Part shown: positions 53,411 to 57,568 of the stretch, piece by piece
How positions within the stretch are numbered: the first letter of the stretch is position 1
Layout of the letters: each line of letters starts with the position of its first letter
Source of the DNA: an uncultured Erysipelotrichaceae bacterium
GTDB lineage: Bacteria; Bacillota_I; Bacilli_A; RFN20; CAG-826
Assembly: GCA_900317295.1 (NCBI GenBank)
Contig: ONGB01000003.1
Span: 12,245-76,244, forward strand
Direction of reading: 5' to 3'
DNA: 64,000 nucleotides
The notes under the pieces: model-generated
Seen by the model: the letters and a program-made list of their open reading frames with translations, nothing else
Database searches by the model: none
What the model was told of the DNA's origin: nothing
Translations under genes and position numbers: made by a program

Positions 53411-53820
53411 TGATAACGTGGGGACGTACTGGTTTTGATTCGGAAGGTCGGTCATCGACTGCAGTGGTCTGGTAGACCCTAAGACCGAAAAACAATAACT
53501 GACAACTCTGTCAAACCCTGGATGGTGCGTAACAACGCCGTCCTCGCTCGCGCCTAATTAGAGCACCCCTCGATGGGTTCCCGCCAAGCGGGACGAGCAC
53601 GTCCGCCCCTCATTTCTCGCCTATTGAGGGAGCGGGCGCAACACCAAGGCGATAAGCGCGTAGCGTTGGCTAGCGCGTAACGTCGAAAACCTTACCAGCC
53701 ATGGGTCATGCGCTTTGGGGCGTATCTTCAACCATGACCCGAGACTTGAAACGCCATAAACTGTAGGCGTCGATGGTTAGTCTTCCGAAGACCGGAGTTC
53801 GACTCTCCGCGTCTCCACCA
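53411..53820 (+). ncRNA. ssrA: transfer-messenger RNA (tmRNA)
   Basis: 5' GGGGACG pairs with 3' CGUCUCCACCA (acceptor stem with G3.U), T-arm GGAGUUCGACUCUCC, ends in CCA; starts and ends like B. subtilis tmRNA; tag ORF GAC(53492)...GCC-TAA(53546-48) preceded by AAUAACU as in B. subtilis; followed by terminator 53834-53866. Confidence 0.93.
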
Positions 53821-53833
53821 CGTTGAATCAAAA

Positions 53834-53866
53834 AGCCGAGCACTTGATTGTGTTCGGCTTTTGCTT
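53834..53866 (+). terminator. intrinsic terminator of ssrA
   Basis: AGCCGAGCAC-TTGATT-GTGTTCGGCT 10-bp stem (one G.U) followed by TTTT. Confidence 0.8.
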
Positions 53867-53875
53867 TCTGATCCT

Positions 53876-54064
53876 TTAATCGGCCAGCCTGAATTCATTC
53901 ACTTGAAGGGTGAAGACATCTATTGTCTTGCCATTTGAATCAAAGAGCTCAACTTCATAAAGCTCGCCCGGACGCCAGATTTCAACGACTGCGCCCTGGG
54001 TGCCCTTTTTAACCGACCCTTTGTCAACGGTTGTAACAACCGAATCAAACAGTTTAATTTCCAT
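53876..54064 (-). CDS. small DUF4926-like protein (putative antitoxin/immunity partner)
   Basis: 62 aa; KKGTQGAVVEIWRPGELYEVELFDSNGKTIDVFTL pattern resembles the DUF4926 family; 11 nt downstream of the 166-aa gene on the same strand. Confidence 0.45.
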   Translation of the reverse strand: MEIKLFDSVVTTVDKGSVKKGTQGAVVEIWRPGELYEVELFDSNGKTIDVFTLQVNEFRLAD

Positions 54065-54075
54065 AAAAACTCCTT

Positions 54076-54576
54076 TTACTTGATGTAGTTGGTAATCATT
54101 CGAGGTTCTTTTGAAGTTTTTTCAATGCCATAGACGGCGACTACCGTTGCGGTTCTTCCGTTTGCCCCGGTTACTTCTATTCCATATGCGTATTTTATTA
54201 CACCGAATTTGTTTTCGTGTATTTTCAATAGACTCGCTGTTCCAGAAATAATCGCGACATGAATCTGGTTTTTCAAAGAAAGGTAGTTTTCCTTTGTATA
54301 CCCTAGCAGTTTTTCGTACAAAACCGCTTTGTCCCTCCCATTTGGGTTATTAAAATCAAGCGAATACTTTAGAAACTTTTCGTCAGGAGTAATTGCCTTC
54401 TTATAATTGGGCATTATTCGACTGGTTGATCCTTCCTTGGGATAGGTTTTAACATCGCTAATTTGCGAATGGCCCTTTTTGTAATTAGATGAAGCGTCTT
54501 TTTCACCACCTCCATATCTTCCGTTTGACGAATCATAGGGCTGGAGCTGATGCCCTCCGCCGATTTTCACTGGCAT
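54076..54576 (-). CDS. hypothetical protein, Gly-rich N-terminus + about 110-aa C-terminal domain (putative toxin-like partner)
   Basis: 166 aa; no match to a housekeeping family; lies in a low-GC islet next to tmRNA, tightly coupled to the DUF4926-like gene. Confidence 0.4.
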   Translation of the reverse strand: MPVKIGGGHQLQPYDSSNGRYGGGEKDASSNYKKGHSQISDVKTYPKEGSTSRIMPNYKKAITPDEKFLKYSLDFNNPNGRDKAVLYEKLLGYTKENYLSLKNQIHVAIISGTASLLKIHENKFGVIKYAYGIEVTGANGRTATVVAVYGIEKTSKEPRMITNYIK

Positions 54577-54664
54577 AAAGAAGCCTCCTTTTTATAGCCA
54601 ATAATCTAGAAGGAGATTGGTTGAGTTGACAATCTATGGGAAGTTGATGAAAAATTGATGTGAA

Positions 54665-55837
54665 ATGGACGAAAAAACAGAAAATCATAAATTCAACATC
54701 GGAGCTTTTTTGAAAGTGCTGTTTCAGTACCTATCAGACAAATACACAAAAGCTACCGCCACGAACGAGCTGTTTGACCCGTTTTTTAAATACATCGACA
54801 GCTCCTACGATTTTGATAAGGCCATCGTCAGCAAACTCGCTTCGCACAAAATCAATATTCCACAAAAGGTTATCAAGGCGGTTTTGAAATTCGGTAATGC
54901 GAGCAAAAAGGAGTTCGAACGCGCGATTCAAGACATCACTGATGAAAAGTTTTTTCTTTTTCTGGAAGGCTTAGCGGAAGAAATCGAAACACACAAGACC
55001 GAAAGCGCCAAAGAGCTCTCGAGGGTTTTGGATTTTTATAAAGGAAGCGAGGTGAGCGATTTTCTAAATGCGGCGTTTGTTTATGCTGTCCTTTCTCCCA
55101 ACGCGCCAAGCGAGAAAAAACAAAAAACGGGAAGACCAAAAGGAGGCACACACGAATACATTTTTTATCTCTCTCAGACAGAAAAAGAGGAACAGGCCAA
55201 GGTCTTAAAAAACAAAATCCTCAAAAGCGTAAAAAAGTTGACGCTCGACGATCTTCGCGACATTTTGGCTTTAATGACATATACAACGGTTTGTTTTTCA
55301 AAAGAAGAAAAAGTGAAAGCCTCCCTAAGATTTCTTCAAGGATGGAAAGTCCTTTATGGTTTGACCCCGACCCAAGAGCTGTTACAAACAATAAAGGACA
55401 TAGGTAGGTTCAGCGAACCGGATGTTCGTGAAATATTCGTGGGATGGGAGGAAGCGGTTTATGAGGCCAATGATACGAAAAAGGCCAACCATCTAAAAAA
55501 CCTTTTTACCCGAGCAAAAAGAATGAATAGTTTTGCCAACATATCCAAATACGCAGACAGTTTGGTTGATGAAGAAGACTTAGGAAAATCCGGTGCGTTC
55601 TCTGCTTCTTTAGTGAGAAACAAATTCTTTCTCCCAAACTTTTTGGATCATTTGACTAGTTCGTTATGGAGTTATTGTTGCTCGGTGGCTAGGCTGGCGC
55701 ACAAAGCGGGAGTCCAAAAGGATTTTGAGAAAAAGCTTGACGATATGATGGCGGTGACTCCTAAAAACAAAACAACAACCGAGCGGATTGAATACCTCAG
55801 GGAGCTAGCAACACAAGAGATTTCGCGACATTTCTGA
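54665..55837 (+). CDS. hypothetical protein (390 aa, helical, K/E-rich), low-GC accessory gene
   Basis: Long ORF in an AT-rich segment, no Walker or other recognizable motifs. Confidence 0.45.
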   Translation: MDEKTENHKFNIGAFLKVLFQYLSDKYTKATATNELFDPFFKYIDSSYDFDKAIVSKLASHKINIPQKVIKAVLKFGNASKKEFERAIQDITDEKFFLFLEGLAEEIETHKTESAKELSRVLDFYKGSEVSDFLNAAFVYAVLSPNAPSEKKQKTGRPKGGTHEYIFYLSQTEKEEQAKVLKNKILKSVKKLTLDDLRDILALMTYTTVCFSKEEKVKASLRFLQGWKVLYGLTPTQELLQTIKDIGRFSEPDVREIFVGWEEAVYEANDTKKANHLKNLFTRAKRMNSFANISKYADSLVDEEDLGKSGAFSASLVRNKFFLPNFLDHLTSSLWSYCCSVARLAHKAGVQKDFEKKLDDMMAVTPKNKTTTERIEYLRELATQEISRHF

Positions 55838-56069
55838 CCCGCCAATTAAGAAATGTGCAACGACCAACTTGCAATAAAAGTCCAATCTTTTTTCGCAAGG
55901 ATATTGAAAACAAAAACCTTTAAAAAATAAAAAAGAAATTTTTTGAAAATATTTATCGCGCGTGTTTCCTATATATAAAAAGATTAAAGGTGATTTTTAA
56001 GAAAAAAGTTCGATGATTCCTAAGTTTTTGCACATTTTGAAAATTTTTAAAAAAATGTGGAAAAAAGTG

Positions 56070-56097
56070 TTGACATGCGTTTCGAGAGGCGTATAGT
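56070..56097 (+). promoter_or_regulatory. strong sigma-A type promoter (TTGACA-16-TATAGT) driving the large ncRNA candidate
   Basis: -35 TTGACA 56070-75, -10 TATAGT 56092-97; AT-rich UP-like region with inverted repeat CACATTTT/AAAATGTG at 56039-56064. Confidence 0.65.
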
Positions 56098-56103
56098 AAT
56101 GTG

Positions 56104-57568
56104 TTCCGCGGGGAACGCTGAGCTTCGGCTCTGCGAAACCGCGAAACCTCAGATCTTGGTTCTACAAGTTCTGTGAAGGGAATGCACGATGCCCCCAGGG
56201 CTCCTTGCCTCAAAGGTCGGCTGCCTCGAAAGAGACAAAGGCGATGCGGAATCTTGACCCCGCACCTCTACGGAGCGCTTCTCCGTTCGGTAAACCGATA
56301 AAACGAAGGTGGACGGTTAAACCTCTTGGCTACGGCCTTCTGGTGGACCCGCTCACAAAGGGCTCCTCTTCTTGGGTTGAGGAAAGCCACCGCCGAAGCG
56401 CTACCCTGGCGGCCAGTGAACTGGTGAGAAAGGGCGCTGCGAGAAAGCTTGAAAAAGCCAACCTCGCGATCTGGAGACAACGGACTTCGCCGAATCTCCA
56501 AGCGGAATTCATCCCTCCGCCTCGTGCACGAGAAAAAGCGATGATGCCCCGCGTAAACGCTTGCCAAAGCGGTAGCAACGGGCGAAGGGCAACCCTCGGA
56601 AGGAATCCTGCCTTCCCCAGTAAACTGGGAAAACCAAGGGTGACGGGCCAAACCGGACCATCAATCCCGGTCAACCGTCTAAGCCAGAGGAAGCGATTCC
56701 TCTCCGTGGAACACCCCATCCACCCGATAATCATCGCGAAACATGGGACCCAGCAAGGACCTAACCCCGCAAGGGAACGGACGACCTGGTCAACGGGCTG
56801 CATCGAAAGATGATGTCCGCGGCGCTTCTGCCCCGCCGCCAAGTAGAACTTGGATAAAGTCTCAGGTGGATGAACCGCAAGGTTCGAAGAGGTGAAAAAC
56901 CTCCGGCCCCGAGAGAAGGCCCCGGTAAACCGATAACTTCCCTCTCCGACCGCATCATGGCATGGCCCAATCCGCCCTCTGCCGCGGAAGGTAGTCACCT
57001 ACATCAGGTGCGACGATAGCCTCGCCGTCAGTGAAACTGGAAATGAGGCTGCGAATCCGTCGGTTCCCTTCGGGGCTCAGGCTGATCCGTGAACTCCTAG
57101 GAATTCATAACTAGGATGGTGCCAAAAGAGGCTCGGCGCGCGGTAAACCGCTGGAAAAGCCTCGAACCCAGACGCAAGCCTGGGGGAGATCAGAGACGCA
57201 AGTCCCTGAAGGAAGTCGTTCCACCCTGCAATTCGTGAAGTCGGAACGTGGTAGAGATACCTGAGCGAACGAAGATGTACCTCAGGATCGACATCGAGAC
57301 CTACTAGGAGCGATCCGAAATAGGCCTAGGAAGATAAGAGTTCTTCTCAGCGGTACACCGCGAAATCAAAAACTTGTTCCTGAATGCCTTCCTTGATCAA
57401 GCAAGGTCCGCGGTAAGGATCGATCATCCTCGGATGAGTGGTTGGTTGGAATCTCCCACGAGGTAAACCTCGAATACGAAATATCCCGACGCAATTGGAG
57501 CTATACGAGTCGTTAAACAGGAAAGCCAAGCGACACCACGCAGCGATGCGTGGCGTTTTCTTTTTTAG
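56104..57568 (+). ncRNA. candidate large (about 1.47 kb) GC-rich structured noncoding RNA of unknown class
   Basis: Bounded by a consensus promoter and an intrinsic terminator (CCACGCA-GCGA-TGCGTGG + TTTTCTTTTTT at 57535-57568); no T-runs inside; only overlapping Arg/Pro-rich low-complexity ORFs on both strands; many hairpins capped by UUCG/GNRA loops (GAGC-UUCG-GCUC 56119-30, CCC-UUCG-GGG 57067-76, several GCGAAA); CGGUAAACCG occurs 3 times. Confidence 0.55.

Follow-up and report, generated by a model that had tools for sequence, protein, structure and literature searches.

A low-GC three-gene segment beside ssrA as a candidate defence or addiction cassette

What kind of element occupies the AT-rich gap behind the transfer-messenger RNA (tmRNA) gene ssrA of an uncultured Erysipelotrichaceae bacterium, and what might its genes do together? 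The segment in question, at 53863-56069 of the 64,000-nucleotide stretch of contig ONGB01000003.1 analysed here (the window), encodes a 166-aa protein, a 62-aa protein and, divergently, a 390-aa protein. We read it, with a probability of about one half, as a self-contained, mobile three-gene conflict cassette, in which a sensed cue would lead to control of a toxin and then to growth arrest of the abortive-infection or addiction kind.

By composition, the segment clearly stands apart from its surroundings. Its guanine-plus-cytosine (GC) content is 39.6%, compared to a window mean of 52.8% (standard deviation 0.032), and because no other 2.2-kb segment of the window is as poor in GC and the value lies about four standard deviations under the mean, the shift is not due to chance. 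GC fractions of 0.39-0.43 persist over 53800-56050, with flanks of 0.52-0.60 on both sides. The first-pass annotation of this DNA had described an AT-rich drop directly after the tmRNA terminator, an accessory and compositionally foreign segment, and a minus-strand pair of 166-aa and 62-aa genes 11 nt apart; the drop and the foreign character are borne out by these values, and the pair is exact at its coordinates. Just three open reading frames (ORFs) fill the segment, none of them recombinase-like. The 166-aa ORF precedes the 62-aa ORF with a gap of 11 nt, and each is headed by a Shine-Dalgarno sequence. The locus is laid out as follows:

53420-53820, plus strand: tmRNA gene ssrA (ARAGORN; Rfam RF00023, 105 bits), the left neighbour, outside the cassette
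53831-53862, both strands possible: hairpin terminator with an A-tract before and a T-tract after it
53876-54064, minus strand: 62-aa ORF with its own Shine-Dalgarno sequence, DUF4926 (Pfam), predicted immunity protein
54076-54576, minus strand: 166-aa ORF with its own Shine-Dalgarno sequence, predicted toxin
54082-54414, minus strand: DUF6883 domain (Pfam), residues 55-165 of the 166-aa protein
54505-54576, minus strand: N-terminal motif of the toxin, residues 1-24, MPVKIGGGHQLQPYDSSNGRYGGG (from alignment)
54577-54664: divergent control region of 88 bp between the toxin operon and the 390-aa gene
54665-55837, plus strand: 390-aa ORF, all-helical two-domain partner, divergent from the toxin operon
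54698-55093, plus strand: N-domain of the 390-aa protein, residues 12-143 (AlphaFold2 (AF2) model)
Residues 144-163 of the 390-aa protein: disordered linker, K-TGRPK (AF2 model)
55154-55813, plus strand: C-domain of the 390-aa protein, residues 164-383 (AF2 model)
55838-56069: AT-rich spacer (GC ~0.33) from the cassette to the strong promoter of a non-coding RNA locus, with the right edge of the low-GC segment inside it

Judging by its symmetric A- and T-tracts, the hairpin at 53831-53862 could terminate both ssrA on the plus strand and the convergent toxin operon on the minus strand.

The predicted toxin and its immunity protein

The 166-aa protein carries a DUF6883 domain (E 7.6e-19; 68.4 bits against a Pfam gathering cutoff of 27). 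Its AF2 model, built with ten homologues (mean predicted local distance difference test score (pLDDT) of 80, block means of 80-94 over residues 51-166), places helices at residues 65-72, 81-91 and 98-111 ahead of strands at 115-121, 127-136, 142-151 and 159-165. The predicted fold, three helices and then a four-stranded antiparallel sheet, thus shows the packing of helices on such a sheet that defines the BECR fold. A Foldseek search of the PDB with this model, one of the checks proposed in the first-pass annotation, returned a toxin entry as its best and only significant match: 6CP9, the CdiA-CT/CdiI complex of Klebsiella pneumoniae 342 (E 8e-4, probability 1.0, TM-score 0.63-0.69 on the target, 111 columns), whose matching chains were taken as the toxin from chain length and topology. 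Kp342 CdiA-CT is a BECR tRNase of five helices and four strands, with K157, Y160, H170, R252 and T255 in its active site (PMC9086364). Across 12 diverse DUF6883 domains, K67, Y71, K83 and N97 (window numbering) are invariant, all four being kept in the window toxin, and R159 and T/S162 are mostly conserved; they resemble K157, Y160, R252 and T255 of Kp342 in residue type, a comparison of types and not a residue-level superposition. On the basis of the model, the DUF6883 toxin is predicted to act as a ribonuclease (RNase).

The cassette toxin and CdiA-CT Kp342 have in common the fold, as predicted, conserved residues of the K, Y, R and T/S types and an immunity gene directly downstream. They differ in that the cassette toxin shows no detectable sequence similarity to its counterpart, has neither a CdiA filament nor CdiB nor an invariant His, and is a free-standing protein of 166 aa with an N-terminal motif of its own, the immunity protein being a 62-aa DUF4926 protein. 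None of the three cassette proteins, nor the alignment profiles A3 and A8, has significant sequence similarity to the PDB, and scans of the cassette proteins against NCBIfam and PHROGs gave nothing useful. Toxin residues 1-54 match no Pfam, NCBIfam or PHROG family; the motif region is modelled at a pLDDT of 46-57, a low value that would suit a flexible peptide. In neither the toxin nor the 390-aa partner was a signal peptide or transmembrane segment found, and a tblastn search of the phage collection with the toxin gave no match. At the 'LDxxH' position, residue 78 of the toxin (window 54343-54345), most DUF6883 domains have a His; because Asn or Ser takes its place in the window toxin and in a few of its relatives, this His is not an essential catalytic residue in DUF6883.

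The 62-aa protein had been labelled 'DUF4926-like', correctly, as Pfam assigns it to DUF4926 with E 1.2e-13 (50.6 bits against a cutoff of 29.1). Its only extra Pfam match is SH3_12, below cutoff, and Pfam finds no helix-turn-helix (HTH) or ribbon-helix-helix family in it. DUF4926 follows DUF6883 across phyla. On a Rahnella plasmid, a longer unannotated ORF ends in DUF6883 (E 2e-26), with an annotated DUF4926 gene (E 3e-23) coming next. In an Anoxybacillus prophage, a 'minor capsid protein' encoded beside the portal gene consists of Phage_Mu_F and a C-terminal DUF6883 domain (E 1e-20), and an overlapping 56-aa ORF comes after it. Eleven IMG/VR contigs encode proteins of 430-514 aa that end in a DUF6883-like domain, in all eleven cases with a 54-62-aa ORF within a few bases after the gene. 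Five of these loci were scanned: all five proteins carry DUF6883 (E 4e-13 to 3e-28), four match Phage_min_cap2 or Phage_Mu_F (two of the four below the curated cutoff), and three of the small downstream ORFs show weak similarity to DUF4926. The viral DUF6883 genes therefore show the arrangement described for MuF polymorphic toxins (PMC5576092). The cassette shares with them the DUF6883 toxin domain and the small gene that comes next. It differs from them in lacking a MuF domain and a phage context, with a 54-residue MPxKIGGG…YDxxNGRYG region instead, and in the 390-aa partner, which is absent from the viral contigs and always present with the cassettes.

Because the prophage, the MuF-type IMG/VR contigs and the Rahnella plasmid provide independent genomic evidence, the toxin reading is strong, and the 166-aa and 62-aa proteins are very probably a toxin and its immunity protein. 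The DUF4926 protein would be expected to neutralise the toxin. The earlier assignment of the pair to the toxin-antitoxin or toxin-immunity type is supported in this sense, as toxin and neutraliser, by the fold, the MuF toxins and the DUF4926 linkage; the part that does not stand is the usual type II toxin-antitoxin (TA) order. In type II TA systems the antitoxin autoregulates its operon via a DNA-binding domain and its gene usually comes first, whereas here the toxin gene does, as in polymorphic toxin/immunity pairs. Like a type II TA module, the cassette contains a compact, mobile, chromosomal and translationally coupled pair of toxin and small neutraliser, but it does not belong to this class: apart from the gene order, its neutraliser has no recognisable DNA-binding domain, a large divergent third protein is invariably present, and toxin domains are swapped in polymorphic-toxin style.

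The 390-aa partner, its relatives and its control region

Toxin-immunity pairs and BECR RNases are well known; the element for which no description was found is the constant third gene. Its product is a helical protein of two domains, and the gene invariably stands opposite an RNase toxin operon that can be exchanged. A word-indexed homologue search with the 390-aa protein found only the protein itself, and the family was assembled via a synteny-derived alignment and then an exhaustive profile search. Toxin homologues at 54-59% identity have an adjoining divergent gene of 388-397 aa beside DUF6883 and DUF4926. The three genes occur together in three unrelated chromosomal contexts, and the 390-type proteins of the three align end to end at 24-30% identity:

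Context 1: ssrA / cassette / non-coding locus (window and 21 same-species contigs)
Context 2: ogt / cassette / thrS (L011-L013)
Context 3: AraC / cassette / 114-aa gene, then SpoIIE (L015-L017)

The exhaustive profile search found about 16 full-length members among 1.84 billion representative proteins. A scan of JGI metagenomes with the family alignment added just two new loci, as the family is rare, and no member was found in IMG/VR (alignment scan) or in the phage and plasmid collections searched (plasmids by tblastn). All nine distinct members with a readable upstream flank are faced by a divergent small toxin operon, which in five cases contains a DUF6883 toxin. Beyond the three contexts above, the divergent operons are:

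L098 (P0024) and L115 (P0012 type): DUF6883 toxin
L102 (P0019): EndoU_bacteria toxin of 178 aa and a 106-aa gene
L104 (P0028): 167-aa protein with a C-domain of no known family and a 194-aa gene
L113 (P0026 type): toxin whose C-terminal part is of a fourth kind (cut off by the contig end)
L099 (P0021): DUF4417, Ntox50 and a 100-aa gene
L101 (P0020): DUF4417, a 159-aa gene and a 151-aa gene

Seven of the nine toxins begin with a motif of about 25 residues, MP(V/T/Y)K(I/T)GGG-x3-Q(E/P)YD(S/P)xNG(R/Q)YG. It precedes at least four different C-terminal parts (DUF6883, EndoU, the L104 type and the L113 type), and the genes downstream vary with these toxin domains (DUF4926, the 106-aa gene and the 194-aa gene). 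At the level of sequence, a shared head, exchanged toxin domains and matching 3' genes are the signature of polymorphic toxins, here tied to one partner gene. The trafficking and secretion functions of polymorphic toxin systems were not seen, there being no secretion genes in the neighbourhoods of the three cassette contexts. We are confident, more so than for any other part of our reading, that the toxin, DUF4926 and 390-aa genes form one functional unit. The 390-aa protein, earlier regarded as an orphan, turns out to be encoded by the most constant part of this unit, divergent beside the toxin operon in each of the nine members.

In the operons that start with DUF4417, this gene overlaps the toxin start by 17 nt at L099:829-845 and L101:3427-3443 and by 4 nt at L105, an arrangement that suggests tight translational coupling or a frameshift fusion. 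The toxins of these operons have Gly-rich N-termini without the MPxKIGGG motif. DUF4417 is reported to be phage-enriched and to occur fused to ParB-CTPase folds (PMC12704722).

The AF2 model of the 390-aa protein, based on 18 family members (pLDDT 86.6), is wholly helical and has two domains, joined by a disordered linker with a conserved K-x-GRP-K/R motif; Walker A motifs and hydrophobic segments are absent from the protein. It had previously been described as helical and without recognizable motifs; both of its domains have homologues in known or candidate defence proteins. We considered whether 'TGRPK…FYLSxxEKEE' could be a ribbon-helix-helix element, and rejected this, as the model shows a disordered linker and then a helix, without a strand.

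In profile searches, the two domains have separate relatives. The N-domain recurs at the N-termini of proteins with ABC-3C CTD6 or CTD11 (PADLOC LmuA, E 1e-65 and 1e-46) and of a macro-domain ThsA (PADLOC ThsA, E 2e-44); the window protein itself has a weak PADLOC LmuA match over residues 12-153 (E 7.9e-4). The C-domain recurs as the last ~215 residues of 550-620-aa proteins with an N-terminal P-loop NTPase of the KAP/ATPase_2 type (PADLOC candidate PDC-S49). Profile-profile alignment with hhalign connects the N-domain to the N-termini of LmuA, ThsA-macro and CTD11 proteins (99.6%, E 5e-25, 151 columns) and the C-domain to the C-termini of the KAP-like NTPases (99.9%, E 1e-34, 215 columns), compared to 0.5% and 17% in cross-controls. 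The 390-aa protein has no direct match to the PDC-S49 models of PADLOC, and none to an NTPase in Pfam or PADLOC. The KAP-like relative P0030 has a MobL relaxase and a restriction-modification system as neighbours; a restriction-modification system also adjoins the CTD11 relative P0068. One weak match of a relative to HamA raised the question whether the N-domain is a Cap4- or HamA-like nuclease; this is unlikely, as the domain is all-helical and has no invariant acidic or basic residues.

In LmuA, the N-terminal part is the effector, while the C-terminal domain (CTD) docks to LmuB/C (PMC12663957); the ThsA variants reported so far are SIR2-SLOG and transmembrane (TM)-macro (PMC11204291). As LmuA and ThsA carry their effectors there, the shared N-domain sits at the usual position of a killing domain. 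Sharing a domain does not, however, make the cassette a member of these systems. Its N-domain is homologous to the N-terminus of macro-type ThsA, and type II Thoeris consists of a TM-macro ThsA and a TIR-containing ThsB (PMC11204291), whereas the window has no ThsB or TIR, macro or SLOG domain. The same N-domain is homologous to the effector position of LmuA with CTD6 or CTD11, but LmuB, LmuC and an LmuA CTD, as in Lamassu/ABC-3C (PMC12663957), are missing from the window, so that the N-domain is all that is shared. In a similar fashion, the C-domain (~164-383) is homologous to the C-terminal ~215 residues of the PDC-S49/KAP NTPases, from which the 390-aa protein is set apart by the lack of a P-loop.

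If the N-domain works with a toxin encoded in trans, other proteins with this domain would be expected to have a toxin operon nearby. At L105, a macro-type ThsA (P0081), followed by a ThsB-TIR gene, has a divergent upstream operon of DUF4417, a 142-aa protein with faint similarity to PBECR1 and a 105-aa protein, the same operon type that stands beside two 390-family members. The locus itself (L105:3344-6620) is Thoeris-like and non-canonical, its ThsA consisting of the helical N-domain and a macro domain, without TM or SIR2. We also examined two LmuA-type loci with the N-domain: one (L106-108) lies inside a phage-like region and comprises CTD6, MC2 and a 404-aa gene of ATPase size with no recorded Pfam family, and the other (L112) comprises CTD11, MC7 and DUF2326 beside a type I restriction-modification system.

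In the 88-bp spacer between the toxin operon and the 390-aa gene, a promoter scan found two sigma-70-like divergent promoters, whose -35 boxes overlap (TTGACA at 54626-54631 on the plus strand, TTGTCA at 54632-54627 on the minus strand). Oriented repeats, GTTGA at 54620-54624, 54625-54629 and 54643-54647 and ATTGA at 54654-54658, cover both promoters. In nine spacers upstream of 390-type genes, that of the ThsA locus included, 18 copies of GTTGA point the way the 390-type gene is read and none points in reverse, with 1.5 occurrences expected; none of 20000 shuffles reaches 18. The pattern is seen again at L113, and the L105 spacer contains four to five GTTGAGAT repeats with a 10-nt period. Since the N-domain is the sole protein element common to all loci, and the immunity proteins vary while the repeat is constant, the N-domain is the most economical choice of repeat binder and, as far as sequences can tell, a candidate for this role.

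Other direct repeats precede LmuA-type genes with the N-domain, namely three copies of CTATAGRTA at L106:5960-5995 and three of TTAGAGTG at L112:1145-1190; at both L106 and L112, the divergent upstream gene ends in an HTH like that of sigma-70 region 4. The 390-aa gene of the window has no Shine-Dalgarno sequence, and a -10-like element ends 9 nt before its ATG (window 54650-54667). A similar -10-to-ATG geometry is found at L099, L102 and L104, and the mRNA of the 390-aa gene may be leaderless.

A proposed mechanism and its competitors

The conflict-cassette reading would work as follows. The 166-aa protein would be an intracellular RNase toxin with a BECR-type fold like that of the tRNA-cleaving Kp342 CdiA-CT, and the co-transcribed and translationally coupled DUF4926 protein would block it by direct binding. 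The 390-aa protein would probably act as a sensor or regulator and determine when the toxin is active: its C-domain, which KAP/STAND-like NTPases also have, might perceive an infection or stress cue, and its N-domain might couple this cue to the toxin operon or to the toxin itself, either through the GTTGA repeats over both promoters or by binding the conserved N-terminal peptide of the toxin. The outcome would be growth arrest, as abortive infection or addiction. Every step that involves the 390-aa protein is put forward here as an inference. In the searchable literature we met no account of such a three-gene architecture, of the head common to these toxins, of the oriented repeats or of domains shared with Lamassu, Thoeris and PDC-S49 proteins, and the segment is probably an undescribed defence or addiction module rather than the remnant of an integrated island; the idea of a defence or addiction system, already raised in the first-pass annotation, is still the best reading.

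Several observations weigh against this reading. As toxin and immunity protein are co-transcribed, simple de-repression alone would not free the toxin. All structures used are predictions. No His that would match the catalytic His of Kp342 is invariant across the 12 DUF6883 domains. Compared to the PDB and BFVD, the Foldseek check of the 390-aa model returned no significant neighbour, only armadillo-like noise (E > 0.01, TM-score < 0.25), so that the biochemical role of this protein is deduced from its context only. The pI of the N-domain is 6.3 in the window protein, with a median of 5.8 in the LmuA and ThsA relatives, and a basic N-domain as a sign of DNA binding is therefore not consistently supported. 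The connection to Thoeris comes from a single locus, and both LmuA-type loci examined have no toxin operon nearby, so that the N-domain is not always accompanied by a toxin in cis; its link to a separate toxin is supported, not universal. The rarity of the family limits all statistics. Finally, exported interbacterial toxins are the best-known setting of DUF6883, EndoU and Ntox50.

This last point leads to a different account, in which the toxin is exported as an interbacterial polymorphic toxin, with the N-terminal motif as a trafficking signal, the 390-aa protein as an export adaptor or chaperone, and DUF4926 as protection for sister cells. The conserved N-terminus, the swapped C-terminal toxin domains and the matching small downstream genes would all fit, and DUF6883, EndoU_bacteria and Ntox50 are domains of delivered toxins (PMC5576092, PMC9086364). 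We nevertheless consider it unlikely, as there is no secretion apparatus and neither the toxin nor its partner has a signal peptide or transmembrane segment; the motif, of just ~25 residues, matches no known trafficking domain; the cassette consists of three genes only, in several genomes squeezed in between housekeeping genes; cytoplasmic proteins with a known or candidate role in defence contain each of the partner's domains; and no member of the 390-family was found in IMG/VR or in the phage and plasmid collections. Alternatively, the cassette could be a plain selfish TA addiction module that senses no infection and persists via post-segregational killing, with the 390-aa protein merely as its transcriptional regulator. 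The compact, low-GC format at varied loci without mobility genes, the operator-like repeats over both promoters and an AT-hook-like GRP motif in the disordered linker would suit such a module. A two-domain protein of 390 aa, however, far exceeds the size of a typical TA regulator, and proteins of the Lamassu and Thoeris types as well as PDC-S49-like NTPases (one of these NTPases beside a restriction-modification system) contain its domains. In addition, the toxin gene precedes that of the small partner, in which no DNA-binding fold can be recognised. Pure addiction thus seems a rather improbable explanation, and since many TA modules act in defence, it overlaps with the conflict-cassette reading.

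The first-pass annotation had suggested a decayed island at the 3' end of ssrA or a non-integrase insertion. The first of these, taken as an integrase-borne island with three genes of unrelated cargo, can be judged from the distribution of the cassette. tmRNA genes are classic integration sites of islands, and the cassette does abut ssrA. It is present in 21/21 same-species contigs and absent from the nearest GTDB species, UBA7278 (L018), for which nrdD is 87% identical; nrdD served for this comparison, as no relatives were found via the lineage-specific 421-aa neighbour. Similarity to the UBA7278 contig ends exactly at the CCACCA of the tmRNA 3' end. Between ssrA and nrdG, that contig has GGDEF, folA, thyA and other genes, and because it is rearranged on both sides of ssrA, it does not represent a clean empty site. 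The earlier statement that no integrase and no direct repeat of the ssrA 3' end is visible was confirmed: the cassette contains no integrase gene, none was found in the window, and the proposed search for a degenerate duplicate revealed no second copy of the ssrA 3' end in the 64 kb (a 23-nt pattern allowing up to 3 mismatches; the final 80 nt by blastn-short). Terminal repeats of the cassette were not found, and integrases or att repeats are absent from every cassette examined. The sister cassettes at ogt/thrS and AraC/SpoIIE have no tmRNA or tRNA beside them, and the one in L011 is likewise a low-GC insert (0.36-0.41 in a host of ~0.50 GC). The three genes are a conserved unit and not random cargo, and they fill nearly all of the low-GC segment, leaving no room for decayed island genes. 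A decayed island with unrelated cargo is thus highly improbable, and it is very likely that the segment is not an ssrA-integrase island; the supposed link to an ssrA integration site is not supported. The cassette is horizontally mobile and its position next to ssrA incidental, a caution that AT-rich islets beside ssrA are not always integrase-borne islands.

Should the conflict-cassette reading hold, it might extend further. Tentatively, and with more doubt than confidence, we suggest an undescribed class of defence in which a helical sensor or adaptor commands a separately encoded, exchangeable BECR RNase toxin-immunity operon, with the N-domain as a general coupling module; Thoeris ThsA-macro and perhaps LmuA would then have recruited this domain in place of a built-in effector. 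If the coupling is real, it provides a modular route by which immune sensors employ a toxin-antidote pair encoded in trans as their effector, and small-molecule or SMC-based immune sensing could be wired to a TA-like effector in trans, via a GTTGA operator or the N-terminal peptide of the toxin. It would also assign functions to DUF6883, DUF4926, the LmuA/ThsA N-domain and the PDC-S49 C-domain. As the system consists of three genes in 2.0 kb with a defined control region of 88 bp, it is directly testable.

Neighbouring features

To the right of the AT-rich spacer lies a locus with a composition unrelated to that of the cassette:

56070-57560, plus strand: 'large ncRNA locus', with a near-consensus promoter (TTGACA-16-TATAGT, 56070-56097) and a terminator-like hairpin (57536-57553)

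Its GC fraction is 0.58, and it contains no credible ORF and many hairpins with GNRA-type loops; the folding of 56100-57090 gives z = -4.2 compared to 20 shuffles. Rfam has no match for it, even at E <=1. The locus is found in same-species contigs only and is absent from the nearest species, and it may represent a novel structured RNA of ~1.4 kb.

In the third chromosomal context, a Peptidase_C39 ABC transporter, a second ABC transporter and a radical-SAM/SPASM gene are located ~3 kb from the cassette (L015:9739-14770). This group resembles an export cluster for bacteriocins or for ribosomally synthesised and post-translationally modified peptides; as it was not seen beside other cassettes, its presence is probably a coincidence.

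tmRNA tags commonly end in LAA. The tag encoded by ssrA in the window (53501-53557) is unusually long and ends in ARA, DNSVKPWMVRNNAVLARA, and the tmRNA of UBA7278 (L018:18801-19193) encodes a nearly identical tag, DNTVKPWMVRNNAVLARA.

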